Shown here: positions 606 through 18,945 of the stretch, one piece after another
Numbering within the stretch: position 1 is the stretch's first letter
Layout: each line of letters starts with the position of its first letter
Source of the DNA: Bacteroidota bacterium
Lineage (GTDB): Bacteria; Bacteroidota; Ignavibacteria; UBA10030; UBA8401
Assembly (NCBI GenBank): GCA_035506275.1
Contig: DATJPT010000014.1
Span: forward strand, 23,736 to 87,735
DNA: 64,000 nt
Reading direction: 5' to 3'
Position numbers and translations under genes: made by a program
Notes under the pieces: generated by a model
Told to the model about the DNA's origin: nothing
Seen by the model: the letters and a program-made list of their open reading frames with translations, nothing else
The model's database searches: none

Positions 606-607
606 AT

Positions 608-2200: not shown

Positions 2201-2295
2201 GGCTCATTAACCTTATCGTCTTTCCTGATTGACTCTCTATTTAACTGTCGCACGTTGCAAAACGAGCAATAATTTCCGGTTGCTTGAGCGACTGG

Positions 2296-2826
2296 TTAAG
2301 TGCCGCCTCGCAGTTCCCAAATCGGCGGATACTTCTTCCCGGTAATTAAATGATGAAGGCTTCTCAATGCAGAATTAATTTCTATCGGCACAATTTTCAA
2401 CTCATCAAGTGTCACAACTTCTACAGACGTTTTCAATTTTCCTCTTGCAGTACCAACACCCATCTCAATTTTTCCAGTTTGTTCATTTATTGTCATTCCA
2501 TTGTGCAAATAACGATTGCGCAATTTTTGAGCCTTCTTTAGTTCAACAATTGTCTCAGGGTACATTTTTAATCTTGGAAATTGTGGTATCAAGTATTCAC
2601 AAAGCGATGATAACATGTCAAGTTTTTGTGGGAAATTTGCGTGTGTTATCAAAATAAAATTCCTCATATCAGTCAAAGATTCAGAGCCAGCGAGTTTGGA
2701 AATATTCATATCTAGGGAAGATTCAAGATATGCCCACATTGTAGCAATGCGTCCCAACTCCATAAGGAATTCATTGGGAAGCGGCCAGCCATTTCTGTCA
2801 AATTCTGGAATTTTAGATTTAGTCAT
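2296..2826 (-). CDS. cassette ORF, hypothetical protein (last cassette of array; degenerate attC remnant downstream)
   Basis: ATG 4 nt after core site GTTAGGC (minus strand); downstream only a partial attC-like end (ttgagcgactggttaag at 2283-2297, overlapping the stop). Confidence 0.55.
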   Translation of the reverse strand: MTKSKIPEFDRNGWPLPNEFLMELGRIATMWAYLESSLDMNISKLAGSESLTDMRNFILITHANFPQKLDMLSSLCEYLIPQFPRLKMYPETIVELKKAQKLRNRYLHNGMTINEQTGKIEMGVGTARGKLKTSVEVVTLDELKIVPIEINSALRSLHHLITGKKYPPIWELRGGT

Positions 2827-2833
2827 TTTAGGC

Positions 2834-3017
2834 GCCTAACGGACCGGAGATAAGCTGCTGCGACGACCAGCCGCGACAAGGTAGCTCGTTGCGCGGACGT
2901 TCCAGTAGGGTGCTTCTAAGTCCGTCCCACAACGCCCGGCGAAATCGTCGACAGCTGGTTCGGTCAGTGAGCGCTTTTCGCCATCACGCTTTGCGTGACT
3001 TGAGCGACTGGTTAGGG
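2834..3017 (-). repeat. attC-like recombination site 1 (184 bp)
   Basis: left end GCCTAAC (RYYYAAC), right end GTTAGGG (GTTRRRY-like), imperfect internal inverted repeats with unpaired bases; right ~65 bp near-identical to the other copies. Confidence 0.7.
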
Positions 3018-3027
3018 CGCACACACG

Positions 3028-3885
3028 TCATGGTGGTTGGTGTAATAACAATTGAGCAAATTGAATTTCATTGCAAGCTTCTTGAAACCTGCCGGCAACT
3101 GCAAATTTTAATCTCGGATGGAAAGTCTTCGGACTAGTCCGAACAGGTAATTGCTTCAGGATATTTAATGTGAAGAAATGCGCACTTATATCATCTGCTT
3201 TTGTAAGAAGAACAATAATGCCAAAATGTGCATTTGGATAGTTTAATAGGTGTGGTTCGAACTTCTTCTGGAATTTATTCTTGATAATTGCGATTAAGCA
3301 TTTAATAGCTTCTTCATGATCATCAGATAGATAAGCACCTTGGCTTGGCACTAACTTCAGGTTTTTGCACTCTTCTAATTCCAGAGTTGGTGTGGTACAA
3401 TCAAGGAGCCAAATAGGTTGATCATTTGCATCAATAATGGCAACATCAGCGTTTGGAGGTGAGAGCCCTTTGCTTGGCTTCTGTAAGGGAAAATCAAATT
3501 TTATATTTAAGTTGGCCTTTTTTAATCGAGCCGCGAACCAGAGCTCTGATGCGGTGTCCCAGAATGAAGTGCTACCAATATTTGAAAGTTTATGACTTAT
3601 TTCCTTTTTGTCATTCTCAGTCAGCATTGGCAAAATTCTAGTTAGGCTCGCTTCGATATTTCTTAGATTCGTTCGGGGATCGTAAGCCGAGGGCGGGAAA
3701 TCGCTTGTGGCAACTAAGAGAGCTTCAAGCAAGTTGAATGGGCGATTTTTGTGACTTAGGGATAAGTCGATGATTCCATTGGATAACTGCGCTCGAATGC
3801 TTCCCCAATCTAAAATTTGATTAAGCTGGGGAAAACTCAGAGCGTTTCTTTGAGCGGTTTCTAGTTGTGAGTTAAATGCTGTCAT
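3028..3885 (-). CDS. cassette ORF, hypothetical protein (285 aa)
   Basis: stop 10 nt before attC-1 core; same orientation as all other cassette ORFs. Confidence 0.6.
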   Translation of the reverse strand: MTAFNSQLETAQRNALSFPQLNQILDWGSIRAQLSNGIIDLSLSHKNRPFNLLEALLVATSDFPPSAYDPRTNLRNIEASLTRILPMLTENDKKEISHKLSNIGSTSFWDTASELWFAARLKKANLNIKFDFPLQKPSKGLSPPNADVAIIDANDQPIWLLDCTTPTLELEECKNLKLVPSQGAYLSDDHEEAIKCLIAIIKNKFQKKFEPHLLNYPNAHFGIIVLLTKADDISAHFFTLNILKQLPVRTSPKTFHPRLKFAVAGRFQEACNEIQFAQLLLHQPP

Positions 3886-3927
3886 TTGTGCGCCCTAACG
3901 TACCGCGGTTAAGCTGCGGCGGCGAGA
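3886..3927 (-). repeat. half attC-like site (R''/L'' arm only)
   Basis: gcgccctaacgtaccgcggttaagctgcggcggcgag matches the left arm of the full elements, but no right arm; it fills the whole 42-bp gap between two cassette ORFs. Confidence 0.5.
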
Positions 3928-4620
3928 TTAACGCAAATACAGTTGATTTCTTGTCGTTAAATATTGGTAGACATAAGGTTTCTCCCTAAAGGCATCGACC
4001 TTAGATGTATCGACTTCATTCCCAAAATGGAGGAGAGTTGGTTTGATTCGAATTGAATCTATGCTCCATTTCATGTCCAGGGCATTCTTGTGTACTGCAG
4101 TGGGGAAGAAGGCATCGACGTCAAGTTCCTCAAAAGTGTTTGATGGTATTCGGAGAATTTGAGTTTGCTCACTCTCTTCGTTAGGGTCAAGATACCAATC
4201 CGTAAAGAGTCTGCCAGTAGACAAAAGAGTTCGATGTTTTCCAGTAAACCCTCTTTCCATAATTCCAAGGGGCTTGGCGAGAGCGGAATCGGCCATATAA
4301 ATAAAAGATTTGTCGTCCCGATTCTGATCATATTCAACATCACGTCCGTAGGCCGCCCAGACACTTGGGAGGAGCTCTACTCGGCGCGAGCTGGGATTCT
4401 TAATTGAGGCTTTCATTTCTACGATAAGAACGGAGGTCGATTGACCGTTAGTTTTCAGTGGATAGGCTCCAATTTTTTTCAACTCGAGGTGCGCAGTGAT
4501 ATTCGCTGGCTCGTTATACTCTTTGTACAAAAATATCGATGCAGCCCATATGCCAGCGACAATAATTCCAAGTGTCTGAACCCAAGTATTAATCTGTTCG
4601 CTAATTGATCGATTCGACAT
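3928..4620 (-). CDS. cassette ORF, hypothetical protein with N-terminal TM helix
   Basis: internal ATG at 4620 preceded by GGAGGA 9 nt upstream; the track start at 4647 is only 11 nt from the attC core, hence the revised start. Confidence 0.55.
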   Translation of the reverse strand: MSNRSISEQINTWVQTLGIIVAGIWAASIFLYKEYNEPANITAHLELKKIGAYPLKTNGQSTSVLIVEMKASIKNPSSRRVELLPSVWAAYGRDVEYDQNRDDKSFIYMADSALAKPLGIMERGFTGKHRTLLSTGRLFTDWYLDPNEESEQTQILRIPSNTFEELDVDAFFPTAVHKNALDMKWSIDSIRIKPTLLHFGNEVDTSKVDAFREKPYVYQYLTTRNQLYLR

Positions 4621-4657
4621 AAAGACAGTCCTCCGAATTAATTGCATGAATCTCGCC

Positions 4658-4832
4658 GCCTAACGGACCGGAGCTAAGCTGCGGCGACGTGCAACGTCGC
4701 CGCGGTAGTCATTCCGTGCGTGGTATGTCATGTCCGATAGTAACTCCCATTTGCGCGCACAAGATCGCCGACGGCTGGTTCCGTCAGTGAGCTCCAAAAG
4801 CGCCATCCGCCTTTAGCGTGACTTGAGGGATT
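4658..4832 (-). repeat. attC-like site 3 (right core degenerate, GTTATTC)
   Basis: GCCTAAC left core, conserved ctaagctgcggcg and ggctggttccgtcagtgag...cgtgacttgag blocks. Confidence 0.6.
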
Positions 4833-4864
4833 GGTTATTCCGCTAGCGCTTACTTTGTTATCAT

Positions 4865-5575
4865 CTACGGTGTCGGTGTGTACCCGCCACCACGAAGCCA
4901 ATGAACTTTCATATGATTCTTTACCAACTGGTCACCGATCTGAAAAGTGAGCTTTTCCATCCACTCTTCATCGAACACTTTGTCAAAGATCACCAAAAGT
5001 TGCTGAATCAGGTCATTGAGATTTTGAAAAACTAATTTCGCGTGTTTAGGACTCAGTTCAAACGGATTAAAAGGGATTTGTGTATGTGGCCAGTAATTTT
5101 TCCCATGTAACACTTTAAGGTCGGGAGCATAGTCATCTTCTGAAGAAATATAAAGTCCAAGGCGTTGCGCATCCAGATAAATTCCGGTTTTTGGATGTAC
5201 CCATGAATTCCTAATTCTTACAAGTTCAACGAAAGTTTGAAATACATTTCCAGCTTTATCAAAACCTTTGGTCGAGACTTCCACCCCGCAGAATTTTGGA
5301 GCCAATAACCACTTTTCTGGAAGGCTTAGTTTATCAATGGCTTTGAAAGTGTCATCACCAACTTTGCCAATGTAGAATTCGGAATAAACCTTATTGATCA
5401 ACGCCTCACTGGCAAAAACAGTAGAAAGAAGGCAATGCCGTGCAAAATAGGAAATTAGCTTCCCTTTTTGATCTTTTGTGAATTCTTCTTCAGCAAGTTC
5501 CAAGAATTTTTCCGCATCTCTGTAGTGCACGTAGAAGAAATTTAGCTCAATCTTAGCTTCTAGATTAGGAGGCAT
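4865..5575 (-). CDS. cassette ORF, hypothetical protein (236 aa)
   Basis: ORF between attC-like sites 3 and 4, same orientation. Confidence 0.55.
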   Translation of the reverse strand: MPPNLEAKIELNFFYVHYRDAEKFLELAEEEFTKDQKGKLISYFARHCLLSTVFASEALINKVYSEFYIGKVGDDTFKAIDKLSLPEKWLLAPKFCGVEVSTKGFDKAGNVFQTFVELVRIRNSWVHPKTGIYLDAQRLGLYISSEDDYAPDLKVLHGKNYWPHTQIPFNPFELSPKHAKLVFQNLNDLIQQLLVIFDKVFDEEWMEKLTFQIGDQLVKNHMKVHWLRGGGYTPTP

Positions 5576-5640
5576 GGATTAATCGTCTGTAAGTATGGTT
5601 TCTTTACCGAGCCGCCTGCGGTTTTGTAGAAGCGCAAGCG

Positions 5641-5792
5641 GTATAACAGACCGGAGCAAAGCTGCGGCGGTGAACGGCTGCCACCAGTTAGTTCGTTGCG
5701 GAGACCTTCCAGCCAGAAGTGCTAAATCCGGCCAACAACGCGCGACGAAATTGTCTACGGCTGTTTCCGCCCGCTTGAATACCGGTTAGTGC
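5641..5792 (-). repeat. attC-like site 4 (diverged; cores GTATAAC / GTTAGTG)
   Basis: retains ccggagcaaagctgcggcgg and inverted gcaagcgg/ccgcttga arms but is shorter and has degenerate cores. Confidence 0.5.
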
Positions 5793-5804
5793 GCAAAATA
5801 TTGA

Positions 5805-6206
5805 TCATGGTTGATTCATGCAATATTTATCCCACCATTTAGAGAGAATTCCGGGCGGAATCGATCCATTAAGGTCCCGTATTCTGCGAAGTTCTCGACA
5901 AATGCATTTCTTAACAGCTACAGTAGCGCTATCAACTTCATTAGGAAGATAGCCGTCTTCATCCACAAGCACATCATTATAGCTAGTCCAACAACGCTCA
6001 ACACGCACCTGCATGTTATTAAGCACATCGACTGGCACTAAATTTTCAAGTTGCGTTGCCTCCAATTGTAACTGCCGGTCAGAGTTGATCTTTGGATATG
6101 TTTCTTTAAATGCATTGTTGGCTTTCTTTCTATCTCTTAGAGTAGCCCAAAGATCAACGGCTTGCATTGTAGCCGATATGCCTGCGATGATTATTTCAGC
6201 TGCCAT
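5805..6206 (-). CDS. cassette ORF, hypothetical protein (133 aa)
   Basis: ORF between attC-like sites 4 and 5. Confidence 0.5.
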   Translation of the reverse strand: MAAEIIIAGISATMQAVDLWATLRDRKKANNAFKETYPKINSDRQLQLEATQLENLVPVDVLNNMQVRVERCWTSYNDVLVDEDGYLPNEVDSATVAVKKCICRELRRIRDLNGSIPPGILSKWWDKYCMNQP

Positions 6207-6239
6207 CAGAACCTCCCGTAAAATGTTTTTTTGTTTTGC

Positions 6240-6390
6240 GCCTAACGAACCGGAGCTAAGCTGCGGCGCGGTGCAGCCAGTTCCATGTAAAATATACGCG
6301 CGGCAGACGTCGCCTTTTCCCTCAAAAACTATTTTCGCGCGCGGCGAAGAGCTGGCCGCTGGTTCCGTCAGCTTGAGCTGCTGGTTAGGC
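6240..6390 (-). repeat. attC-like site 5 (151 bp)
   Basis: GCCTAAC ... GTTAGGC; conserved ccggagctaagctgcggcg block. Confidence 0.65.
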
Positions 6391-6419
6391 AGCGGCTCGA
6401 ATTAAGTGTTGTGCACCGG

Positions 6420-7184
6420 CTAGTACATGTTCTTGTAGATGCTTGAAATGTCCTCCGTGATTTCGAGATAAGGCTTGGCCACCGCAAACAAGGCACCGAC
6501 CGAAACCAACAAGAACGCCAGTACCATAAGGACGGCCGTGACCTGGTAATCGAACTGTGTCCATGCTTCAGCACCCGCCTTGAAGAGGATTGTCATGCTG
6601 ACACCAATGGAGGCAGCCAGACCCAAGTAGGCTTGCACAGTTATTTTTAGATATTTGTCAACTTCTGATTTAAGATAAGAAATGTAGTCTCGCTTCTTTT
6701 GGAACTCTGATAGTCTCTGGCAAACAGCGACTTGATTTTTTATGTCGGCGAAGAAAAACTGTGCGAGAAGATAACCGCACAGTGTTCCGGTGAAAATGAC
6801 AGACCACACTACATTGATTATGCCAAAGCCCATAAAGCGCATGACGCTGACACTTGATAGTAAATTGGCTAAAGACGTCAGGAGAGAATTGTAAAATAGG
6901 TGCGGAATCGTCGTGACGAGGAAGATTTCAATTGCGCTCGACAGAGCAATTATCAAAAATGCGATATTCCAATTTCGGGCAACGACAGGATCGATGGTAA
7001 GGTATACACTGCCATTCAATAATGGTTTGCTGAAGAAGTAGACAGCAAGGCAAAGATTAATGTAGAGAACAGCAAATGCCTTGTTCTGTGCGTATTGATT
7101 TGAAGCATAGCTCGGGTAAGAGATCACAATCGCAAGCAACGCTATATAAGAAATTGTCAATGGTACAATGCCGAAGAGGTTCAT
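6420..7184 (-). CDS. cassette ORF, polytopic membrane protein (~6 TM)
   Basis: hydrophobic segments throughout; start revised to ATG at 7184 because the track start (7244) lies inside attC-6. Confidence 0.55.
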   Translation of the reverse strand: MNLFGIVPLTISYIALLAIVISYPSYASNQYAQNKAFAVLYINLCLAVYFFSKPLLNGSVYLTIDPVVARNWNIAFLIIALSSAIEIFLVTTIPHLFYNSLLTSLANLLSSVSVMRFMGFGIINVVWSVIFTGTLCGYLLAQFFFADIKNQVAVCQRLSEFQKKRDYISYLKSEVDKYLKITVQAYLGLAASIGVSMTILFKAGAEAWTQFDYQVTAVLMVLAFLLVSVGALFAVAKPYLEITEDISSIYKNMY

Positions 7185-7211
7185 GGGTTCTCGAAATATT
7201 TGGGTTCTGCT

Positions 7212-7395
7212 GCCTAACGAACCGGAGTTAAGCTGCGGCGGCAAAAAGCCGCCGCAAGGTAGCTCGTTGCGCGGACGTATCCGTTGATCATATCTTTTCC
7301 AGCGTACTATCGCGCGGCGAAATCGTCGACGGCTGGTTCGGTCAGTGAGCGCTTTTCGCCATCACGCTTTGCGTGACTTGAGCGACTGGTTAGGC
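7212..7395 (-). repeat. attC-like site 6 (184 bp)
   Basis: GCCTAAC ... GTTAGGC; nearly identical to site 1 over both ends. Confidence 0.7.
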
Positions 7396-7403
7396 GGTTG
7401 CAC

Positions 7404-8126
7404 CTAGATCCAAATAGCGTATGGCTTGATTTGAAACGATTCTATTTTGGGTATTGGAAAAAGTATTCCGAAAACGTTCAACGGAATATTTTCACCTGAA
7501 TATCCGGAAAAAAAGAATGCTTCGTGACGCGAAAAAGAGTGAAGACTCCCTTCGCTACTAGGAAATTTAGAAATGCTTGCAGCCATAGCTAATGGGACCT
7601 TAATTTCTTTGAAATAATTGTCAGAATATTTGTAGTTGTCAAGTTTCTTGTCTTTTTCAAAGTAGACATAACCAACGGAATTGATATTTTCGATAGCTCG
7701 TCGTCGGTCGCCATAAAACTGGGGAGCGTCGAAAGTGGATTTAACAAGAATATATACGGGACCATCTGACAATTTAGTTGCTTTAGATGCCTCGCCGAGA
7801 TTATCAAATAGACTAGGAGGAGAAATAGAAGAGAGTTTGTTTACGAGCCCACCCAAAAGATTTTCCGCTTTAATTTCAATCCGGACACTCTCATTTATAG
7901 ATTTTGATTTTGTGAACTCCCCAGTGCCATCAAGTTCCAAAAGTCGGAAGAGCGTACCGAGTGCTTTTGCTAAACCTATTTTTGCACCCAGCTTGCCTGC
8001 ACTTTGTTTGCCTTCTCCCTTTGTAATTTCTACTGGAACCCCTTGCTCAATTTGAGCGTAGAGGCTTCGGATTCCTTCTTCGTCAAGGTAAATGAATCGG
8101 CGTGGTATTTCAAGCATAGAGATCAT
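7404..8126 (-). CDS. cassette ORF, hypothetical protein
   Basis: ATG at 8126 preferred; the track start at 8153 is a TTG abutting the attC. Confidence 0.5.
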   Translation of the reverse strand: MISMLEIPRRFIYLDEEGIRSLYAQIEQGVPVEITKGEGKQSAGKLGAKIGLAKALGTLFRLLELDGTGEFTKSKSINESVRIEIKAENLLGGLVNKLSSISPPSLFDNLGEASKATKLSDGPVYILVKSTFDAPQFYGDRRRAIENINSVGYVYFEKDKKLDNYKYSDNYFKEIKVPLAMAASISKFPSSEGSLHSFSRHEAFFFSGYSGENIPLNVFGILFPIPKIESFQIKPYAIWI

Positions 8127-8155
8127 GGTTCCGTCTATATGTTTTGAGTGCAACC

Positions 8156-8339
8156 GCCTAACGGACCGCAGCTAAGCTGCGGCAACGTGCAGCCAGTTCC
8201 ATGTAGAATATACGCGCGGCAGACATCGCCATTTCCCTAAATAAATTTTTCAGGCGCGCGGCGAAATCGCCAACGGCTGGTTCCGTCAGTGAGCGCTTTT
8301 CGCCATCACGCTTTGCGTGACTTGAGCCGCTGGTTAGGC
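8156..8339 (-). repeat. attC-like site 7 (184 bp)
   Basis: GCCTAAC ... GTTAGGC; conserved ends. Confidence 0.7.
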
Positions 8340-8360
8340 AGCCCATCGGTATGATACAAG

Positions 8361-8831
8361 CTATCTCTTATTCGGATTATGAAGAAGCATAGACACTTTT
8401 TCGACTACCCAAAAGAATAATGGAATCTCAGACATTAAAGCAAGCTGTCCAAAGATAGGGAAGTATGTCTTGAGATCCCCAGGACTTTCGTAGTGAAGAT
8501 AAATTGTAATCCCTATCCAAGCGAAGACAGGTAGCAGGCCGACAAAAATATAGAATACGATTCCGATAATGATTGTTGCGAGACTTTGTTGCTCAAACGT
8601 ACTCTTATCTTCCGGAAGACGGCGAGGCAGTAAGAGAATTACTCCGGCAACAAGCAAGGCAAAACCGGCTGATGTCGTCGAAAACTTCCCGCCAAAGAAT
8701 TCAAAATTGAGTCCAATCTCCCCTGTACCAGAAATACCTTTCCATAGGAAAGCTATCGAAGAAAGACATAGAATGGCACCGACAATGGTTCGGACTATTG
8801 TTATTTGTTTATTGAAATTTGATTCATCCAT
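8361..8831 (-). CDS. cassette ORF, small membrane protein (4 TM)
   Basis: hydrophobic helices; ATG at 8831. Confidence 0.5.
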   Translation of the reverse strand: MDESNFNKQITIVRTIVGAILCLSSIAFLWKGISGTGEIGLNFEFFGGKFSTTSAGFALLVAGVILLLPRRLPEDKSTFEQQSLATIIIGIVFYIFVGLLPVFAWIGITIYLHYESPGDLKTYFPIFGQLALMSEIPLFFWVVEKVSMLLHNPNKR

Positions 8832-8854
8832 ATGGCACAATGTTTTTTGGGGCT

Positions 8855-9040
8855 GCCTAACGGACCGGAGCTATGCTGCGGCGGCGAAGCGCCGCAGCGA
8901 CAGAATTCAGTCCGCGCGAGACGAGTCATGTCCAACAAGTAACAGGTTGTTTCGCGCGCATTGAATTATCGACGGCTGGTTCTGTCAGTGAGTGCTTGAA
9001 GCACCATGGCGTAGAGCGCCACTTGAGCGACGGGTTAGGG
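8855..9040 (-). repeat. attC-like site 8 (186 bp)
   Basis: GCCTAAC ... GTTAGGG; conserved ggctggttctgtcagtgag block. Confidence 0.65.
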
Positions 9041-9061
9041 CGCACCATATGAGAAATTTAA

Positions 9062-9673
9062 CTAGTGGAGAATTTCCATAAATGTCGGCGATTTTCTAAA
9101 AGCCTTAAATTGACTATCTTCTCGAATAATGGATTTAAAGTCGTCATCAATTTGAATAACTTTTGCCACCTCCGAGATCGCACTTTGCTGAAAACCAGAA
9201 CTCCAATAGGCCAAAGCGAGATTATAGTGGGCCCATATATTGGTCGAATCTAGTTGGACAGAGCGCTGAAGGTCAGCCAAGGCTGATGGTAGATTCTTGT
9301 TCTTGTAGTACAAGTAGCCTCTCAAATTGTAGGCAGTTGAACTTGAGGAATCTAGTTGGATTGCCTTTGTGTAAGAGTCTATAGCTTGTTTCCGTTTTCC
9401 TGTTTCAGCATATGCGATTCCATTGTTCAGGAACTCTGTGGAGATCCGTTCCCTTTCATTTTCCTTAAGGAGCAATGATACGGAATCGCGAAGGATAGAA
9501 GCCACGGCGAAATGGTTCTTATCTTCATTGATCACTTTGTTGACCTCTACTTGCCTAGTGTGATTCCACCATATCAGAGAAATGAAAGAGATCAACATCG
9601 CTATTACGCCCAATGAAGTTACTAGAGCGCCTATTCTTGAGTTCTTTTTGAGTTTGAGCAATTCATCGTCCAT
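9062..9673 (-). CDS. TPR-repeat protein with N-terminal TM anchor (first cassette, gene 2 of 2)
   Basis: N-terminal TM helix then tetratricopeptide-like repeats (AIQLDSSSSTAYNLRGYLYYKNKNLPSALADLQRSVQLD...AHYNLALAYW). Confidence 0.55.
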   Translation of the reverse strand: MDDELLKLKKNSRIGALVTSLGVIAMLISFISLIWWNHTRQVEVNKVINEDKNHFAVASILRDSVSLLLKENERERISTEFLNNGIAYAETGKRKQAIDSYTKAIQLDSSSSTAYNLRGYLYYKNKNLPSALADLQRSVQLDSTNIWAHYNLALAYWSSGFQQSAISEVAKVIQIDDDFKSIIREDSQFKAFRKSPTFMEILH

Positions 9674-9960
9674 GATTCGTATCCTTTCTGCCCACGGGGT
9701 TTAAGAGCTGGAGGGCGTCACTCCACATTTTGAGTAGCCTTCCGCTAGTAAAGGCAATTCCCCCAGATGAGCCGAACATTCCGATTATTGAAGGGATCTC
9801 CTCCTGGCCTTTTGAATAAATTAAATAGATCGCACATCCTAAGAGAGAACAAAAGGAAACGATAGTGACGATCAAATACACGATTCTTTCCATCTTAAAC
9901 ATCTTAAGCAGTTTACCGATGGCTTCTACTTTCTTATCAAGATCATCTTGTTCGGCCATT
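9663..9960 (-). CDS. small membrane protein (first cassette, gene 1 of 2)
   Basis: two hydrophobic helices; 11-nt overlap with downstream TPR gene; a lone core site GTTAGGG (minus) sits ~55 nt upstream. Confidence 0.45.
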
Positions 9961-10242
9961 TTGCTCACTCTGATGAGAATATTTAATCATGGTGATCAAT
10001 CTCTGTATTCAGCCTCCGTGTGCCCTAACTATGATTAGATTGCATATGCAGGTATGCGCTGGTTTTTAGTGTGATATATTGCTCCCTGTAGGATAGATAA
10101 TAGAATAATTGAGGGATAGTCCGGTAGGTTTTTGAACGCCCCCTCGCGATTGTCTCTGCTGCAAAACTACGGCAATTCAAATACAGATGCAACTTTAGAA
10201 GGGAGCCGAATGATGGAAGTGTAATGATGGAAAAATGAAGAA

Positions 10243-10283
10243 AACAAAAAAGCCCGACGTGGGGGGACGCCGGGCTCTGACCC
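10243..10283 (-). terminator. rho-independent terminator
   Basis: minus strand gcccggcgtcccccc/acgtcgggc hairpin followed by ttttttgtttt, downstream of the T9SS gene. Confidence 0.6.
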
Positions 10284-10472
10284 TTTCTAGGTGCGACGCT
10301 CAGGGGAGGAAGCGTCACACAGGTCATTTGAATGAAAATATGAAAACGTATTTTGTTTGTCAAGAAAAATAAGACGATGTTTCGTCCGCGCTCATCACTC
10401 CCGCATAGAAACTTACTTCAGGAGTTCCATCTTACGCGTCTGGACAAATTCTCCGGACTGCAACCGGTAGAA

Positions 10473-11651
10473 TTAAGTGCCGCTTGGCAAAGAGCTGGCA
10501 GAGAAGGAAATTTCATGAATCCCAGTATTTTCTTCACCTTCGACAAGCTTCTGAACTTCTTGTCCGAGGACATTGTAGATCTTGAGCGTCATAAAACTCC
10601 GAGTTGGGAGCGAGTATTGGATTGTCGTCGTTGGATTGAACGGATTTGGATAGTTCTGGCTAAGCTCGAATTGATTCGGGATCTGGTTTGTGTGACCCTT
10701 GATTGAAGTTATCATATCCGATAACGGTCGCATCCAAACATTATTCACCGAGGTTTGAACGAAGAGGTTCGAGCCCATTACGGCCAATGATATAACACTG
10801 GTATCAGTCAATCCGGCATTAACCGTCATCCAATTCGCGCCGTTATTAGTGGAAAGGAAAACTCCGTGATCGGTTCCCGCAAAAAGATTACCGTCACTGG
10901 CGGCAAGCACATTGACCGACGATATATTCGTCAATTCGGACCAGCTTGCACCGTTGTTAGTGGAAAGAAAAAGATCACCGTTTACTCCGGCAAAAAGATT
11001 ACTGCCACAGGCGACGAGTGCATAAACAGATATTTGCGGCACATAAGAGCCCGTTGGGTTTGGCAAACCGGAATCAACCTGGGCCCAACTGTTGCCATTG
11101 TTGGTTGATAAACAAACTCCTCCCTGCGTCGCGGCAAAAACGTTTGTTCCGATAAAAGCAAAGGATAAAATGGAATAATTCGTCAAACCATCATCGCTTT
11201 GCTGCAAGGATGAAAACATATCAGTCGATAACCAAATACCATATTCCAATGATCCCAAAAATATATTGGTGCCATTGGCTGCAATAGTATAGAGGTACTC
11301 ATCCGGAAGTTCATTTTTATAATTCCAAGTTGTGCCATTATCAGTTGACAACCAAATTTGATTATAGCCATATACTGTGACAAGATCGGTATTTATACCG
11401 ACAAGAGCGGTGACGTTATGATATCCGCTGTCCTGCAGGCTCCAGCTTAAGCCGTTGTTTGTAGAAAGATAAAAACCTTCTTTTGTCCCGACAAAAAGAT
11501 TTTTGCCGCCCGCTCCATTTGAACATGTGGTAAAGTATCTCCCGCCGAAGATACTGCTGTCTATGTCGGTTTTTTGCCACTGCGCGAACAATGGATTCAT
11601 ACCTGCAACGAAAAATGTAAAAAATGCTAAGACGTAATTTTTAATCTTCAT
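10473..11651 (-). CDS. T9SS-targeted BNR/Asp-box repeat protein; T9SS C-terminal domain interrupted by an in-frame TAA (intact gene would be 10413..11651)
   Basis: signal peptide, repeated S-x-D/N-x-G-x-x-W motifs, NYPNPFNPTTTIQY T9SS motif; minus-strand reading continues after the stop as FYRLQSGEFVQTRKMELLK*. Confidence 0.7.
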   Translation of the reverse strand: MKIKNYVLAFFTFFVAGMNPLFAQWQKTDIDSSIFGGRYFTTCSNGAGGKNLFVGTKEGFYLSTNNGLSWSLQDSGYHNVTALVGINTDLVTVYGYNQIWLSTDNGTTWNYKNELPDEYLYTIAANGTNIFLGSLEYGIWLSTDMFSSLQQSDDGLTNYSILSFAFIGTNVFAATQGGVCLSTNNGNSWAQVDSGLPNPTGSYVPQISVYALVACGSNLFAGVNGDLFLSTNNGASWSELTNISSVNVLAASDGNLFAGTDHGVFLSTNNGANWMTVNAGLTDTSVISLAVMGSNLFVQTSVNNVWMRPLSDMITSIKGHTNQIPNQFELSQNYPNPFNPTTTIQYSLPTRSFMTLKIYNVLGQEVQKLVEGEENTGIHEISFSASSLPSGT

Positions 11652-12608: not shown

Positions 12609-12896
12609 ATGTCGATTCAAACATATAAAAAGATTCCGAATCTTCTCAGGAAGTATCGTAGGATCCGGGGTCTCAATCAAAAAGAGATCGCTGCCATTCT
12701 GGGCCTGAGGAGTGCCAGCCTTGTATCGAGGTGGGAGAAAGGTCGCTGCATTCCAAGTCTCATGAACGCGATCCGGCTAGCGATCCTCTGCCGGAGCATG
12801 GTCGATGCGCTCTTCTTCGATCACGTGAGAGCGCTGCGCGTGGAAATCCGTGATCGGGAGGAAAGGGTTCTCGGGACAAAGAATTCCAACCAATGA
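12609..12896 (+). CDS. XRE-family HTH transcriptional regulator
   Basis: LNQKEIAAILGLRSASLVSRWEKG HTH_XRE-like motif. Confidence 0.6.
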   Translation: MSIQTYKKIPNLLRKYRRIRGLNQKEIAAILGLRSASLVSRWEKGRCIPSLMNAIRLAILCRSMVDALFFDHVRALRVEIRDREERVLGTKNSNQ

Positions 12897-13573
12897 ACGG
12901 AATAGCGCCACAAAATGATATCAGGAAAATGGAAGACGGGGGATGGTATTGGGTCTCAAAACCAGTGATCCAGGAATATGCCCCGAAAGTCGGGTTTCTT
13001 TCTGCGTGCGTTTACCACCTCTTGGCCAGCATGGCCGACGAGAACCAGAGTTGCTATCCGTCTCAGCGCTACATCGCGGAAAAACTCGGCTGCTGCCGGT
13101 CATCCGTGTCGAGAGCCGTGAGAAAGCTAAAGGATCAGGGCCTTATCAGATCCAACGGAAAGGGGAGGGATCACTCCGTTTATCAGCTTCTGAAAGTCAG
13201 AAGTTGCACCAGTGCAATTCAGGTGTCGCACCGGTGCAATTCAGATGATGCACCAGTTGACACTAACAATACTAGTTTAACAAGAAATAATAACAACAAT
13301 GTTGTTAGTGTAAAAAAAATTAACCGACGAACGGATTCTAATGAAGAATTCAAACCGCAGACGAAAGAGGAACTCCTGGCGTTGGAAATCGCTCAGACAC
13401 TCGGTGATCCAAGGAATCCCCGGAAATATCTGCAATATACCAAGCGTTATGCCGAATCACTGCTCAGGGAGGTGTTATCTCAGGTAAAACAAACCCCGGA
13501 AGAGAAAATCAAAAAGAGCCGCGTCGCGCTCTTCGTCTACCTCGTAAACCACTATGCAAAAAGATCAGCTTAA
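12893..13573 (+). CDS. winged-helix/HTH_36-like protein (phage or plasmid replication-associated type)
   Basis: YPSQRYIAEKLGCCRSSVSRAVRKLKDQGLI motif typical of replication-initiator-type HTH domains; Asn-rich linker; overlaps neighbours by 4 and 20 nt (operon). Confidence 0.5.
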   Translation: MNGIAPQNDIRKMEDGGWYWVSKPVIQEYAPKVGFLSACVYHLLASMADENQSCYPSQRYIAEKLGCCRSSVSRAVRKLKDQGLIRSNGKGRDHSVYQLLKVRSCTSAIQVSHRCNSDDAPVDTNNTSLTRNNNNNVVSVKKINRRTDSNEEFKPQTKEELLALEIAQTLGDPRNPRKYLQYTKRYAESLLREVLSQVKQTPEEKIKKSRVALFVYLVNHYAKRSA

Positions 13574-14057
13574 TATTTTGGCGATCAACCCTGGCAGCCG
13601 GTATCTCGGCATCGCCATCTTCGTCGGAGACGAACTCCGCGATTGGGCGGTAAAGCTTGCCAGGCGGGAGAATATTCGGGAGATGATTTCGGAATATATA
13701 AATCAGTATGGTGTTCACGTTGTCGCGTTCAAGAAATTCCATCCTTCGAGAAGCTCCCGTGATCTTCGCATGATCATCTCTTTGATGCAGGAGGTCGCAA
13801 AAAAGGCCGGACTCGCGCTTCGTGAGTACTCCATCGGCGAAGTAGAAGAGGCATTGCTGCCGGAGAAGAGAAAGAACAAGCAGCTCCTGATGCAAGAAGT
13901 CGTCGCTCGATATCCCTTCCTATCGAACGAGCTTCAGCGGGAAGCGAAAAACAAAAACCCTTATCTGATTCGGATGTTTGAAACCGTCGGGATTGGGAAG
14001 GTTTGTATGAGTGAACTTGAGACTGGTGTCCGAAAGGTCGAAAAAAAACAATTATGA
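13554..14057 (+). CDS. RuvC-like resolvase paralog, catalytically degenerate
   Basis: ILAINPGSRYLGIAIF aligns with RuvC N-terminal motif but has Asn in place of the first catalytic Asp; second acidic residue and the H/D pair also missing. Confidence 0.5.
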   Translation: MQKDQLNILAINPGSRYLGIAIFVGDELRDWAVKLARRENIREMISEYINQYGVHVVAFKKFHPSRSSRDLRMIISLMQEVAKKAGLALREYSIGEVEEALLPEKRKNKQLLMQEVVARYPFLSNELQREAKNKNPYLIRMFETVGIGKVCMSELETGVRKVEKKQL

Positions 14058-14063
14058 GCGAAA

Positions 14064-14561
14064 ATGAAGAAAGCAAAAAAGATACTCGCAATTGATCCAG
14101 GGACAAAACATCTCGGTTTCGCCTTGCTAGAAGGATCTGCGCTGATTCACTACGGGGTGAAGACAATTTCGGATGGGAGAACAGGGCAATTCCGTTTGGT
14201 CCAAGGGAGAGCGATCGTTTCAAGATTGATTGAAGACTTCAATCCGGATATCCTGTTTGTCGAGAAAACATATTTTGGAAATAACAAGGACTCGAAGACC
14301 TTGAATCAGCTTACAGAGCAGATTCGAAGAATGGGATTGAAAAAGGGGGTTATAGTCCAAACCATCGCAACGAATTCGGTGAGAAAAATTGTGTGTGGTA
14401 ACGGGGAGGCAGGTAAAGAGGATGTCGCGAAAGCGATGGTATCGAAATATCCGGAGCTTCGGCCATATCTCACTTCGGACAGGCGATGGAAGGAAGAATA
14501 TCACCGGAATATGTTTGACGCGGTGGCACTTGGATTGGCCGGCTGCGGATTGGTCAAATAA
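14064..14561 (+). CDS. ruvC: crossover junction endodeoxyribonuclease RuvC-like (catalytic residues intact)
   Basis: ILAIDPGTKHLGFALL (Asp), ILFVEKTYFGNN (Glu), HRNMFDAVALGLA (His/Asp); 165 aa. Confidence 0.6.
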   Translation: MKKAKKILAIDPGTKHLGFALLEGSALIHYGVKTISDGRTGQFRLVQGRAIVSRLIEDFNPDILFVEKTYFGNNKDSKTLNQLTEQIRRMGLKKGVIVQTIATNSVRKIVCGNGEAGKEDVAKAMVSKYPELRPYLTSDRRWKEEYHRNMFDAVALGLAGCGLVK

Positions 14562-14778
14562 CAAGGCCGATTTGATTTTAGAAGTTATCGACATGCAAAA
14601 AATGGAAACCATGGTTAGATAAGTTATGCGCGGCCTGAATATCATCCATTTGAATCCTGCCTTGAATCCTGCCTTGGGACCCATGCCTTGATTATTTGAA
14701 TGTGTTTGTTTAAGTTTCCGACTGGGGCGGGGGGCTGATCCCACCTCAAAACTCACTTTCACTTATCATGGAGATCGT

Positions 14779-14946
14779 ATGCCATCGACGGGAGATACTT
14801 GCTCTGTTTCCGGGATATACGAGGTTGTTAACCACATAGCCCATCCTCATCAGATCACAATGGTCGCGGGGAAAGAGTTTCCGCCGTGCCGGGAATGCCA
14901 CCAAAAAGTCGTGTACAGGCTAGTGCGAGCAACGCAACATTGATTT
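14779..14946 (+). CDS. small (55 aa) putative zinc-ribbon protein, not in ORF track
   Basis: MPSTGDTCSVSGIYEVV...GKEFPPCRECHQKVVYRLV; a Cys pair and FPPC-x-x-C motif are all I can see; weak SD. Confidence 0.25.
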
Positions 14947-15350
14947 TAACGTTGCGGTCCGGCGTTACCATCGAACAAATAGCCGAATCCACCCAACGCC
15001 GTTGTTGATTTTTTGGAGCCAGATTTAACAATAATCTGCTCATTGGCTTGCGGGTGCCCCGCTTCTTCGCTTTCAAGATTTTCCTGAAATGTTTTGAACT
15101 ATTTTTGGGGGCGAGGGAGGATGACCATTCTTTCCGGGTAAACATTGAAAGGGGTACTATGGTAGCTTCTCAAAATGTTGTAAATGTTGAAGACCAACTC
15201 GATGGGGTCACTCCGTTGTGCCTGAGTCATTTGTTGTTCAAAAAGTATTTCTTCCTACTTTGAATTTTTGACTCAAGAAAATTGGACTATTCATTTCTTG
15301 TGAACTGGATCAAACAATCAAGAAGTCATTCATTTTAACTGGGGACACTT

Positions 15351-15908
15351 ATGATTGGACTCACGGTCTTTACATTATTTGTTTTTTTTGTTATCGCGTT
15401 GATACGCCCCAAAAAACCGGTGATCGTCTCGCACTGGCATAATCTGATCCAGGGGCTTCAATTCTCGGTCGAAGACTACTACAATGCGCTCGACGCGGTG
15501 ATCGAGAAGCGAAAAGTTCCGGAAGTAAAGGTCGAGGTCACGCATTATCGTGAGGGTGGAATCGCGTCGGCGAAAAGGATGTACTTGAGGATTGGCCGGC
15601 GAGATCACATTTTCGATGTCTGTGCCGCTCCGTTTGGGACGGATTTCTTTGTTTCTTGGTGGCTGGGGCAAAACATGAAAACCATGGGCGCTATCATCAA
15701 CGGGCTCCCGTTCATCGGCCCTCCGCTGATCAGATTGTTCAGTCCCGAAACGTTCTACCGCATAGACACGGCTCTCATGTTTCAGGATTCGGTGCATCAG
15801 GCCGTTCTTGAAGTTCTCGACGACAGGATCAAGGGGCAGGGACTCCGTTCGATGACGGAATCGGAACGGAAACCGATCATGCGCGAACTCTTCAAACAGA
15901 GGAGGTAG
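15351..15908 (+). CDS. membrane-anchored hypothetical protein (gene 1 of ATPase module)
   Basis: single N-terminal TM helix; ends 4 nt before the next gene. Confidence 0.45.
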   Translation: MIGLTVFTLFVFFVIALIRPKKPVIVSHWHNLIQGLQFSVEDYYNALDAVIEKRKVPEVKVEVTHYREGGIASAKRMYLRIGRRDHIFDVCAAPFGTDFFVSWWLGQNMKTMGAIINGLPFIGPPLIRLFSPETFYRIDTALMFQDSVHQAVLEVLDDRIKGQGLRSMTESERKPIMRELFKQRR

Positions 15909-15912
15909 GCAG

Positions 15913-18900
15913 GTGGGAGACTTTTATGCGGAAGAATTAACAAAGCAATTCTACGACTGGGAAGTGAAGGGGAGGGGCTGGCTCTTGTGGGATTCGACGA
16001 TTGAGCTCGAGCCTCCGTTCCAGCCGTTCCAATTCCATGCATCGCGCAGGGACGATCTCTTCATCGACGACGGCCGCAAATCGACCTTCCTCAGTAATCT
16101 GGCCGATGATCTTAAAAAGGCGTTCGGGAATGGGCCAAAGATGGAGCTGCCAGCGGAACCGGCGGCGGAGATCATGCCGACCGTCGATTCCGATGAGAGC
16201 GAATTGATAGAATTCGCCGTCACGCTCCCTTCCAACAGCGAATTGTCGCACGAATACGCCGAGCATTTTCTCCTTAGCCTAAGTTCCTGCTCTTCTCCCG
16301 TCAGCTTTGAGATTCTCGGAACGGAGGGTGCGATCATCGTCCAGTTCAGTTGCCGCGAGCGGGACGTTCGGTACGTGAAGCAGCAAATCAGGTCTTTCTT
16401 TCCCGATGCAACCGTCCAGGAGAAAAAATCATTTGCCGCAATCCTTGCCGAAGGTCACACCGTAATCGCCGATTGCGGGTTGAGCGATGAGTTCATGCGG
16501 CCGCTCCGCACGTATAAGAATTTCAGTCCCGACACGCTCACCACGATCTTCGGCGCTCTGGAGAATCTGGGACAGGGCGAGGTCGGCCTCGTGCAGGTTC
16601 TTTTCAAAGCGGCCGAGGCTCCCTGGGCATTGAGCATTCTGCGGGCGGTGCGGAACAACGACGGCAGTTCCTTTTTTATCGACGCGCCGGAAATGGTTGA
16701 TCTTGCGGAACAAAAAATCGACCGGCCCCTCTTCTCGGTGATTCTCCGCCTTGTCGGACAAAGCCTTTCAAGCGAACGCGCCTGGGACATCGTGAGAGAT
16801 CTTTACGCTGGGCTCCATCCGTTCACGGATCCTGCCTCCAATGAACTGATTCCCCTCACGAACGATGACTACGACGATGCGCTGCATTTCTATGACGTGA
16901 AAAATCGCACGTCCCACCGCAGCGGCATGCTTTTGAACAGCGACGAATTGCTCGGTCTCGTTCATCTTCCCTCGCCTTCGATCCATTCCTCAAAGCTCAA
17001 GCGGGATTCGGGGAAGACAAAAGCGGTTCCTTCCATTGCACGGGGGCACGCATTTGTTCTCGGTGAAAACCTCAACCGCGACTTAAAGACGAAAGCTTCT
17101 TTAAGCGTCGATCAAAGGCTCCGTCATGTTCATATCATTGGCAAAACGGGGACCGGAAAATCCACCCTCCTTCTCAATATGATCAAACAGGACATCGAAG
17201 GCGGAAGAGGAGTCGCCGTGCTCGACCCGCACGGGGACCTCGTGGAGAAGATCGAAGAAATTGTTCCCGAGAGAAGATTGGATGACGTGATTCTCTTTGA
17301 TCCAAGCGATGCCGGATATCCTGTCGGCTTCAACATCCTTGAGGCCCGTTCCGACATAGAGCAGACCGTTCTCTCATCCGATCTTACGGAACTCTTCCGG
17401 CGCTTCTCGACGAGCTGGGGAGACCAGATGACAACCGTCTTATCGAACGCGATTGAAGCGGTGCTCGGCAGCATGGAAGGTGGGACGCTGCTAGAGCTGA
17501 AACGGTTCCTCTTGGAAAATGATTTTCGCCGCTCTATCCTCCGGGCCGGAGCCGATCCTGCCGTTATTTACTTTTGGGAGAAAGAGTATCCGCTTTTAAG
17601 AGGTGGCTCACAGATATCGATCATCACGCGGCTCGACGCGATTCTGCGTTCAAAGATCGTCCGCAATATCGTGGCGCAGAGGGAAGGGCTTGATTTCAGG
17701 AAGATCATCGAGACCGGAAAAATATTCCTGGCAAAGCTCCCGCAGGGAATCATAGGCGAAGAAAATTCTTACCTTCTCGGCTCGCTCATAGTTTCCAAGT
17801 TGCACCAGGCGGTCATGGGCAGGCAGGCAATGAGCGTAAGCGAACGCACGCCGTTCTTTCTGTATATCGATGAGTTCCAGAATTTTGCGACTCCTTCCAT
17901 GATCTCGACGCTTTCAGGTTCACGAAAATACGGTTTTGGTTTGGTCTTGGCGCATCAGGACCTTCACCAGATCGCGGACGCAGCCTTGGAGAATTCGGTG
18001 ATCACGAACCCTTCGACACGCATTTGTTTTGCGTTGGGGGACAACGATGCCCAAAAGCTGGCATCGGGTTTCACTCACTTCGACGCGACGGATTTGATGA
18101 ATCTCGGCGTGGGGGAGGCAATCGTCCGGGTGGAGCGGAGCGACTATGATTTCAATCTCAAAACCTACGAAGTAACTCCGGTAGCGCCCGAGACGGCTTC
18201 AACGAGGCGTGAGAAAATAATCGCATTTACGAGAGAGCGGTACGGGCGCAAAGTGTCGCCTGTGGAGACCCAGAAGCCTCAAACCGAAACACCGCAACCG
18301 CAAAGTACCCCGGTCGAAATAAACCGAGCGCCGCAGCCGCGAGTCAAACCGAAAGAGGAGGACACTCCGAAACCGAGGCCAACTCCACCGCCTCAACGAG
18401 ACTCGATTCCTTCCGGCGATCTTACGGCACGCAAGGACATTTCGCAGCACCGGTATTTCCAAACCTTGGTCAAAAAGATGGCCGAACAACGCGGCTATAA
18501 GGCCGTGATTGAAGAGCCGAGCGGTGACGGCGGGCGGGTGGATGTCGGTTTGGAACGGGATGGAAAACGTATTGCCGTTGAAATATCTGTCACGACAGGA
18601 GATGTACAAGAGCTTCATAATATAGAGAAGTGCCTCAAGGCGGGATATAATCCGGTCGTCGTTTGTTCAACGGACAAGAAGAACCTTGAGGCGATTAGGA
18701 AGCTGATGACAGAGAAGCTGCCACCTTCTGACCAGAGCAAAGTGCTTTTCTTCGAGCCTGAAGGGCTGTTCCTTTTTCTTGATAAACCGGGGGCTGTGGA
18801 GGTCACGAGCGAACAGAAGTTTAAGGGATACCGTGTCAAAGTGCACTATCAGGCCGTTTCCGAAAGTGAGAATAGGAGGAGGCGTGAAACGGTTGCCGAG

Positions 18901-18945
18901 GTCATCGGCCAAACATTAAAACGAATAAAGAAGGGTGCAAAGTGA
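15913..18945 (+). CDS. FtsK/HerA/TraD-superfamily P-loop ATPase with unknown N-terminal domain, Pro-rich linker and C-terminal Hjc-like PD-(D/E)xK-fold domain
   Basis: Walker A IIGKTGTGKST, VAVLDPHGD, Walker B FFLYIDEFQNF, GSRKYGFGLVLAHQD; linker PQTETPQPQSTP...PRPTPPP; C-terminal GRVDVGLERDGKRIAVEISVT resembles the Hjc core (VDLVA...IEVK). Confidence 0.6.
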   Translation: MGDFYAEELTKQFYDWEVKGRGWLLWDSTIELEPPFQPFQFHASRRDDLFIDDGRKSTFLSNLADDLKKAFGNGPKMELPAEPAAEIMPTVDSDESELIEFAVTLPSNSELSHEYAEHFLLSLSSCSSPVSFEILGTEGAIIVQFSCRERDVRYVKQQIRSFFPDATVQEKKSFAAILAEGHTVIADCGLSDEFMRPLRTYKNFSPDTLTTIFGALENLGQGEVGLVQVLFKAAEAPWALSILRAVRNNDGSSFFIDAPEMVDLAEQKIDRPLFSVILRLVGQSLSSERAWDIVRDLYAGLHPFTDPASNELIPLTNDDYDDALHFYDVKNRTSHRSGMLLNSDELLGLVHLPSPSIHSSKLKRDSGKTKAVPSIARGHAFVLGENLNRDLKTKASLSVDQRLRHVHIIGKTGTGKSTLLLNMIKQDIEGGRGVAVLDPHGDLVEKIEEIVPERRLDDVILFDPSDAGYPVGFNILEARSDIEQTVLSSDLTELFRRFSTSWGDQMTTVLSNAIEAVLGSMEGGTLLELKRFLLENDFRRSILRAGADPAVIYFWEKEYPLLRGGSQISIITRLDAILRSKIVRNIVAQREGLDFRKIIETGKIFLAKLPQGIIGEENSYLLGSLIVSKLHQAVMGRQAMSVSERTPFFLYIDEFQNFATPSMISTLSGSRKYGFGLVLAHQDLHQIADAALENSVITNPSTRICFALGDNDAQKLASGFTHFDATDLMNLGVGEAIVRVERSDYDFNLKTYEVTPVAPETASTRREKIIAFTRERYGRKVSPVETQKPQTETPQPQSTPVEINRAPQPRVKPKEEDTPKPRPTPPPQRDSIPSGDLTARKDISQHRYFQTLVKKMAEQRGYKAVIEEPSGDGGRVDVGLERDGKRIAVEISVTTGDVQELHNIEKCLKAGYNPVVVCSTDKKNLEAIRKLMTEKLPPSDQSKVLFFEPEGLFLFLDKPGAVEVTSEQKFKGYRVKVHYQAVSESENRRRRETVAEVIGQTLKRIKKGAK

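Follow-up and report, generated by a model that had tools for sequence, protein, structure and literature searches.

The 64,000-nucleotide stretch analysed here (the window) lies on the forward strand of contig DATJPT010000014.1 (positions 23,736 to 87,735; assembly GCA_035506275.1), from a Bacteroidota bacterium of the Ignavibacteria, UBA10030. Near its start it carries a minus-strand integron cassette array, with the gene of a protein sorted by the type IX secretion system (T9SS) upstream of the array head and convergent restriction–modification (R-M) genes at the tail. An earlier note on this DNA, made from the letters alone, described the head as a lone core site with neither the integrase gene intI nor the platform recombination site attI. 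Comparison with related loci indicates that attI is present, and that intI was cut away to its first few codons, leaving the following features (window coordinates).

10023–10208 (186 nt), minus strand: attI region, simple site TCTAAT-CATA-GTTAGG with conserved blocks upstream
10023–10029, minus strand: crossover core G|TTAGGG, in which attI supplies the G and cassette 1 the TTAGGG
10162–10169, minus strand: candidate –7 box TAGTTTTG of the cassette promoter (Pc), pointing into the cassettes
10209–10236, plus strand: intI 5′ remnant, a 14-nt tandem duplication AATGATGGAAGTGT / AATGATGGAAAAAT
8855–10022, minus strand: cassette 1, with open reading frames (ORFs) at 9959/9968–9663 and 9673–9062 (TPR protein) and the attC site at 9040–8855
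2834–9040, minus strand: cassette array, seven full attC sites (150–186 nt) and one 3′ half-site
9040–8855, 8339–8156, 7395–7212, 6390–6240, 5795–5640, 4840–4658 and 3017–2834, minus strand: full attC sites
3930–3893, minus strand: attC 3′ half-site

Related loci, given here by L numbers, included those found when GTDB genomes were scanned for the attC 3′ motif, 120 stretches in all, nearly all of them from uncultured Bacteroidota and Ignavibacteriota metagenome-assembled genomes (MAGs). In L003 and L092, an integron integrase gene (TIGR02249, 457 bits against a cutoff of 265) diverges from the array, and a single GTTAGG is located some 200 nt upstream of the intI start codon. By blastn, window positions 10024–10148 matched the region upstream of intI in L003 (84% identity over 125 nt, E 1e-30), and the window attI matched L092 (E 1.5e-28) and L079, the head of a 128-kb array (E 8e-26). 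A nhmmer profile of attI heads matched the window with E 3e-50. The same region adjoins an intact intI in L003, L092, L131, L132 and L133. Ten heads, drawn from at least eight genomes, were aligned; five of the heads adjoin an intact intI, and all ten share the end AATCTAAnCATAG|TTAG (...CATAG|TTAG) and diverge exactly after GTTAG. A shared end followed by divergence is the defining behaviour of an attI, and by this homology 10023–10208 is a bona fide attI, a platform that ends at G|TTRRRY and is followed by variable cassettes. The claim that the head lacks an attI is therefore refuted by 186 nt of homology to the attI of five loci that retain intI.

Two blocks stand out within the alignment. 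The block GTAGTTTTGC (10170–10161, cassette strand) is nearly invariant in the ten heads and may be the Pc; TAGTTTTG fits the Bacteroidota –7 box TAnnTTTG of the published Bacteroides/Flavobacterium promoter consensus. A sigma-70 scan returned nothing at TAGTTTTG on the cassette strand (10169–10162). The other is a 27–32-nt block, GGGAAGATACTAAACCTCACAGAAAAAA, which is found in all five heads with intI and in L079, at a position between window nucleotides 10137 and 10136, and which may be the intI promoter (PintI) or its operator.

The core itself reads GTTAGGG at 10029–10023 on the minus strand (CCCTAAC at 10023–10029 on the plus strand). The earlier note had placed it 55–65 nt before the first cassette gene, and the measured distance to the GTG start at 9968 is indeed 61 nt; the publicly annotated start is the ATG at 9959. 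As a motif, the core is no more than chance: the window has 8 copies of GTTAGGG where 3.9 are expected, and 4 of 100 shuffles also reach 8; GTTRRRY occurs 106 times against 104. What gives the site its significance is position and homology. The cassette-side bases GTTAGGGCACAC are complementary, at 11 of 12 positions, to the 5′ flank GTGCGCCCTAAC (9045–9034) of the attC of cassette 1. The same relation between a core and the flank of its own attC holds in L124 (13/13), L092 (12/12) and L081 (12/12), and within the array the seventh core base covaries with the cassette's own attC, the two GTTAGGG cassettes pairing with CCCTAAC and GTTAGGC with GCCTAAC. Since the bases after G|TT complement the flank of cassette 1's own attC, the core is, as judged by this complementarity, a genuine composite attI × attC junction, the trace expected of integrase-mediated insertion.

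On the far side of attI, homology with the intact loci ends at the intI start codon. The 14-nt duplication carries ATGGAA (10213–10218) and ATGGAAAAA (10227–10235), which correspond to the first two to three codons (MEK) of intI in L003 and L092. There the gene begins ATGGAAAAAGGTAAACTTCTC (MEKGKLL), and window positions 10209–10238 read AATGATGGAAGTGT AATGATGGAAAAAT GA. The distance from the start codon to the AAGTTGCAT block is 19 nt in the window and 20 nt in L003. Directly after the duplication comes the T-run of a terminator, and neither the rest of intI nor its 3′ end and downstream sequence (L003, L092 and L131) has a counterpart in window 10240–10412. This comparison indicates that intI is deleted, with the breakpoint just after its start codon. 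Relaxed selection on the T-tract and intI remnant (75% identity in MAFFT) was considered and rejected: the differences comprise two substitutions and two slippage-type indels, and the contrast was not significant.

Searches for an integrase in the window agreed with this picture. A tblastn search with IntI1, used as a probe only, found six integron integrases in related loci and none in the window; with those six lineage IntIs as queries, the best window match (E 0.03, inside a radical-SAM gene at 56 kb) was noise. Pfam searches of 30 window ORFs gave no tyrosine recombinase, bearing out the note's reading of the array surroundings. That note would have abandoned its reading had a degraded intI lain at 10.0–10.5 kb or an intact one just beyond the R-M genes. 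At the former place the gene is unrecognisable, just its first two to three codons remaining; at the latter, tblastn across the 9.4 kb beyond the R-M genes (L123) found no IntI. L123 instead holds the rest of a XamI-type endonuclease gene, a Multi_ubiq/ThiF/BubE (Bub-like) and LexA-like cluster, a large serine recombinase and sugar-modification genes.

The array is otherwise that of an integron. A hidden Markov model (HMM) built from its own attC sites (nhmmer) gave eight matches in the 64 kb, at 2834–9039 and all on the minus strand, at a density of about one per ORF. The attC sites are intact and mutually very similar, and the same attC family flanks intI-headed arrays in related loci. R-box pairing holds in five to seven of the seven sequences, with R′/R″ covariation; RNAalifold on the seven recovered the R-box helix, but with alternative inner helices. 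The cassettes are thus bounded by attC sites with paired R″/R′ boxes and led by an attI, and one part of a complete integron, an adjacent intI, is missing from the window and the 9.4 kb beyond the R-M genes. With eight clustered attC matches on one strand where two or more define the class, and no intI or homology-detectable intI pseudogene within 10 kb (as judged by tblastn with close lineage integrases in place of IntegronFinder's own HMM criteria), the locus fits the IntegronFinder definition of a CALIN (clustered attC sites that have no integron integrase), as the note had suspected. Cassette 7 (gene 4647–3928) retains only the 3′ half of its attC (GCCGCAGCTTAACCGCGGTACGTTAGGG, 3930–3893), which begins at the stop codon; the 5′ half is deleted.

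The junction is real, since independent assemblies reproduce it. It is spanned by ENA contig k141_3603160 and, from another sample, by JGI contig Ga0335069_10850592 (L125), and the ENA, Logan and JGI assemblies all recover it at 99.9–100% identity. The NCBI contig of 213,822 bp is held in ENA ERZ27256505 as contigs of 66 and 147 kb. A third metagenome supplied L124, a syntenic relative with 43% amino acid identity in the T9SS protein and 76% nucleotide identity in the replication/helix-turn-helix (HTH) genes. L124 has the same breakpoint, the same 14-nt duplication and the same terminator. Its attI matches that of the window at 183 of 186 positions (98.4%), and a block of ~310 nt (10332–10023) is ~94–98% identical, both flanks being far more diverged; identity is 96% in a small RNA (sRNA)-like hairpin, 68% in a promoter-like site and 62% at the T9SS gene end. 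From G|TT onward, the cassettes of L124 are unrelated to those of the window. The shared breakpoint implies either that intI was lost before the lineages split or that the allele moved between them; if the ΔintI platform is ancestral to both, at least one attI × attC event followed the loss of the integrase. A metagenome scan with the attI pattern returned only two loci, both ΔintI.

Between the intI remnant and the T9SS gene, the window holds more than was first seen.

10249–10278, minus strand: intrinsic terminator hairpin and T-run just before the intI remnant, predicted to stop transcription from the T9SS/sRNA side
10245–10348, minus strand: candidate small RNA, made up of a hairpin (loop UCCUCCCC) and, after it, the terminator (two-hairpin part, 10332–10245)
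10335–10363, minus strand: sigma-70-like promoter match TTGACA-17-TATTTT, upstream of the sRNA-like element
10413–11651, minus strand: T9SS-sorted BNR-repeat gene with an in-frame TAA at 10475–10473

The note's terminator thus stands, and its statement that the next 450 bp held only a terminator and low-complexity ORFs does not, given the attI, the intI remnant, the sRNA-like element and the T9SS gene end. In L124 the terminator stem is maintained through G.T to A-T and C-G to T.G changes. The sRNA-like element folds strongly (–43.1 kcal/mol, z = –7.17) and has no counterpart at the intact integron loci compared. Its Rfam matches fall below the gathering thresholds, both for ar14 (RF02344; 36.1 bits against 58.8, E 1.6e-5) and for anti-hemB (29.3 bits against 49.5, E 2.8e-5), and the 96%-identical element of L124, which together with its promoter-like site spans L124 4095–4223, gives the same two sub-threshold matches; we regard it as a candidate small RNA that resembles these families and is a member of neither. 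The promoter match agrees at 10 of 12 positions, a level at which chance alone would give the region about 1.2 sites. A 112-aa ORF at 10025–10363 was rejected as coding, its frame being broken in the L124 homologue by 1-nt and 5-nt indels.

The T9SS gene was correctly placed nearby (Pfam BNR and Por_Secre_tail), though its frame runs to 10413. The in-frame TAA replaces a conserved sorting-domain tyrosine (SGVYFYRL in homologues, SGT*FYRL in the window), and the last 20 codons of the C-terminal domain (CTD), FYRLQSGEFVQTRKMELLK, continue in frame past it. The Por_Secre_tail match, short of a complete CTD, covers profile positions 2–56 of 75 and scores 26.6 bits, below the cutoff of 27. The ENA, Logan and NCBI assemblies give the same 392-aa product. 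The TAA appears to be a nonsense mutation of very recent date, and secretion of the protein should be blocked by it.

Heads with attI and no intI recur in the collection, at L081, L024 and L010 in addition to the window and L124. These orphan heads occur in at least four genomes and have at least two origins, type A (window, L124) and type B (L081, L024), between which the boundaries of the GGGAAGATACTAAACCTCACAGAAAAAA deletion differ. L024 shares its MAG with the intact integron L003, and L010 shares its MAG with L079. For four of the five orphan heads, the gene directly upstream is a T9SS-CTD gene in the same orientation:

10413–11651 in the window: T9SS-CTD gene
4219–5436 in L124: T9SS-CTD gene
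3329–5365 in L081: T9SS-CTD gene
6132–8000 in L024: T9SS-CTD gene

These genes share only the sorting domain, and the intact integrons have glycosidase neighbours. One intact integrase, P0123 (NCBI HTY09682.1), is 88% identical to the L003 IntI; at its locus, L131, GH2, GFO and GH31 genes come after attI and intI, and L092 and L003 share these neighbours. The GH2/GFO/GH31 locus looks like the primary sedentary integron of the clade, and the window head like a second platform at another locus. The note had left room for an integrase encoded elsewhere, and the likely partner is HTY09682.1, which probably belongs to the same MAG.

Platform geometry varies within this attC family, as other loci illustrate: in L006 and L065 intI has the same orientation as the attC sites, and in L045 the intI strand also carries an attC 3′ end, 56 nt upstream of the gene. 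Arrays can also be very long. OY970334.1 (3,672,001–3,888,000; L092 and 25 further tiles) holds at least 238 attC matches over ~216 kb, with an intact intI at its head and an internal block of ~64 kb inverted, and CAWGZY010000005.1 (1–128,000) holds at least 186 over 128 kb. Both arrays are comparable to or larger than the superintegrons of Vibrio.

The best explanation, to which we assign a probability of roughly 0.8, is that the array head is the ΔintI platform of a chromosomal integron in an uncultured Bacteroidota lineage, with attI and probably the cassette promoter kept. By operational criteria the locus counts as a CALIN; in biological terms it is a ΔintI integron with its attI retained. 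In this account, all but the first few codons of intI were deleted, and the attI recombination site stayed at the array head. The array would be transcribed from a promoter inside the attI region, insulated by the upstream terminator from T9SS-gene and sRNA transcripts. Servicing of the orphan attI in trans is a step that we infer: an integron integrase would insert and excise cassettes at the orphan attI and the attC sites, with HTY09682.1 of the primary integron at the GH2/GFO/GH31 locus as the candidate.

Several points weigh against this account. An intact ancestral version of this exact locus was not found: the closest T9SS orthologues, P0002 (60% identical) and P0003 (56%), have R-M genes after them and no attI, attC or sRNA homology, and the IntI homologues led to L131, L132 and L133, intact integrons at other loci whose attI variants are not close to that of the window. 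In-situ deletion is therefore deduced from the remnant. Overall, the window attI is only 65–69% identical to the attI sites beside intI, and the GGGAAGATACTAAACCTCACAGAAAAAA block is missing from four orphan heads (window, L124, L081 and L024), so that recognition of the window attI by the candidate integrase is a prediction. The assignment of HTY09682.1 to the MAG of the window rests on the organism name that it shares with the window T9SS protein, HTY11513.1, and on accession numbers 1,831 apart; tetranucleotide correlation between the integrase contig and the window (r = 0.906) is compatible with this and non-discriminating, L003 giving 0.900 and L132 0.913. The assignment of the GTAGTTTTGC block as Pc is a consensus match only. 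The 98.4% attI identity with L124 is a further difficulty: between L003 and L092, attI (87.3%) is about as conserved as intI (86.9%), which speaks against simple purifying selection as the cause of the near-identity. Homologous replacement of an intI+ allele by the ΔintI allele, with the crossover inside attI, would give the same picture of differing cassettes.

Three rivals deny the platform reading outright or make attI incidental. That the array is an ordinary CALIN without attI, a remnant adrift whose GTTAGGG is a chance core or a decayed attC's R′ end, could appeal to the non-significance of the 7-mer by itself (8 against 3.9 expected) and to a weak MAFFT alignment of the head with the attC 3′ half. 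The attC profile nonetheless finds nothing at the head, 186 nt match the attI beside an intact intI with E ~1e-30, and the same 186 nt are 98.4% conserved in L124; attI homology already refutes this reading, to which we give almost no weight. Nor do we put more trust in an assembly artefact in which intI was dropped or contigs were mis-joined at 10.2 kb. Logan contig L122 does end in the same intergenic region, at window 10301, and attC repeats complicate assembly, but the ENA and JGI contigs span the junction and a different species, that of L124, has the same breakpoint including the 14-nt duplication. An unlikely but less remote proposal is that the 310 nt are kept for a non-integron function, as sRNA plus terminator or as a regulatory 3′ untranslated region of the T9SS gene, with attI carried along. 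The strong fold of the sRNA-like element (z = –7.2), its 96% conservation and the sub-threshold Rfam matches in both species speak for such a function. Yet the attI part is conserved even better, at 98.4%, and is homologous to platforms that lack this sRNA, and an sRNA would account for 10245–10348 and not for 10023–10208.

A more serious competitor concerns what became of the platform. It may be dead, with intI lost, nothing acting in trans, the ΔintI allele spread horizontally by homologous recombination and attI serving as promoter or leader; we consider this possible, though doubtful, and the same holds for its placement of the crossovers in the sRNA region and inside attI. The sharp edges of the ~310-nt block against much more diverged flanks would fit such a spread, and with attI normally keeping pace with intI in its evolution, recent shared ancestry is favoured over selection. 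The GGGAAGATACTAAACCTCACAGAAAAAA block on the PintI side is lost, and the window cassettes are not shared with the other arrays sampled. By contrast, both lineages have precise attI × attC products at their first-cassette junctions, clade genomes hold an intact intI together with orphan heads, and the attC sites of the array are intact and mutually very similar. Cassette sharing is unusable as a sign of exchange here, because relatives of the window's cassette proteins are almost absent from the other sampled arrays. The converse idea, that orphan attI platforms are maintained secondary docking sites, with one primary-locus integrase serving several arrays in trans, and are not decay products, we hold only tentatively. 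It would fit their recurrence, their two or more origins and the independent loss of the intI-side GGGAAGATACTAAACCTCACAGAAAAAA block (27–37 nt) in each type, as well as the precise junctions, the lineage-specific cassettes and an attI at 98.4% identity between the window and L124 against 43–76% in the flanks.

At its other end, the array is also truncated.

2239–2301, minus strand: array tail, truncated attC with 5′ part CTTAACCAGTCGCTCAAG, then unrelated sequence and the convergent R-M genes

The last attC there retains only its 5′ 18 nt. A 12-nt string, CGGTACGTTAGG, resembling the attC 3′ end in the opposite orientation, occurs at L123 3860–3882, ~5.5 kb before the window start and beyond the R-M/Bub-like cluster, where its neighbours are a 64-aa ORF and the large serine recombinase. 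The truncated attC and the opposed string suggest that a defence island inserted into, or was inverted against, the array tail. The defence-type cluster at the tail (L123 4079–9998 and window 27–2200) comprises a XamI-type endonuclease, an Eco57I-like methylase, Multi_ubiq/ThiF(DUF6791)/BubE, a LexA-like S24 peptidase and a 613-aa serine recombinase. A look-up of the 545-aa methylase ORF gave no match; the called gene begins 15 codons later.

In the wider window, G+C content steps from ~43–46% (1–42 kb) to ~51% (42–64 kb) at ~42,000–42,500, a position that coincides with the ENA contig split (ends at ~42,396 and 42,465). Given the lower G+C of 1–42 kb, the array and its neighbours probably lie in an acquired segment. 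A 287-nt direct repeat with 92% identity (21348–21634 and 41019–41305) covers a small HTH gene; between its two copies lie ~20 kb in which more T9SS-sorted proteins are encoded. The segment at 12609–18945, a plasmid- or phage-like module syntenic with L124 at 76% nucleotide identity, encodes an HTH protein, a replication-initiator-like protein (phrog_270), a RuvC-like resolvase and a 1010-aa FtsK/TrwB-like ATPase (phrog_5156).

Bacterial genomes contain roughly equal numbers of CALINs and complete integrons. To our knowledge, attI sites are unknown outside the clinical classes, so that the origin of a CALIN is usually unknowable. The study that defined CALINs proposed integrase loss from a complete integron as their origin, found intI pseudogenes near only 15 of 279 (5%) and considered a search for attI impossible, attI being unknown for most integrons (Cury et al. 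2016, PMC4889954). The present locus is a clean, mapped case of that origin, with the breakpoint placed within a few bases and attI preserved, and it demonstrates that attI can be recognised in uncultured phyla by comparison with intact relatives. If an integrase still acts in trans on the orphan attI, arrays now counted among the dead CALINs would belong to a living, multi-platform integron, and counts of cassette reservoirs would change in the Bacteroidota, a phylum thought very poor in integrons, with very few in the complete genomes of Bacteroidetes (Neron et al. 2022, PMC9024848).

Set beside the classical platform (intI, PintI, attI and Pc, as in class 1 with attI1), the locus and its intact relatives share a divergent intI in the relatives, a GTTRRRY core crossed over at G|TT, the imperfect inverted partner TCTAAT 4 nt upstream and ~190 nt conserved between intI and the core; the window attI differs in having no sequence similarity to attI1, attI2 or attI3, and the attC sites are unusually long (150–186 nt) and unusually alike. 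In the sedentary chromosomal integrons of Xanthomonas, intI is lost or inactive while the array persists, with intI usually still present as a pseudogene at a conserved locus. The window resembles these in having a chromosomal array that outlasted its integrase, but here the intI ORF is almost wholly removed and the platform lies away from the clade's primary GH2/GFO/GH31 locus. The sRNA-like element recalls the ar14 and anti-hemB sRNAs with CCUCCUCCC loops (RF02344, RF02837) in its C-rich UCCUCCCC loop hairpin followed by a terminator hairpin with a C-rich loop, and differs from them in scoring far below gathering, in missing one of the three ar14 hairpins and in its host phylum. Like the CALINs of the published definition (PMC4889954, PMC9024848), the array has two or more attC sites on one strand (eight matches), no intI within 10 kb on either side and no detectable pseudogene; unlike them, it has an attI identified through intact relatives, a breakpoint placed at the intI start codon and a second species (L124) in which this beheaded platform recurs.

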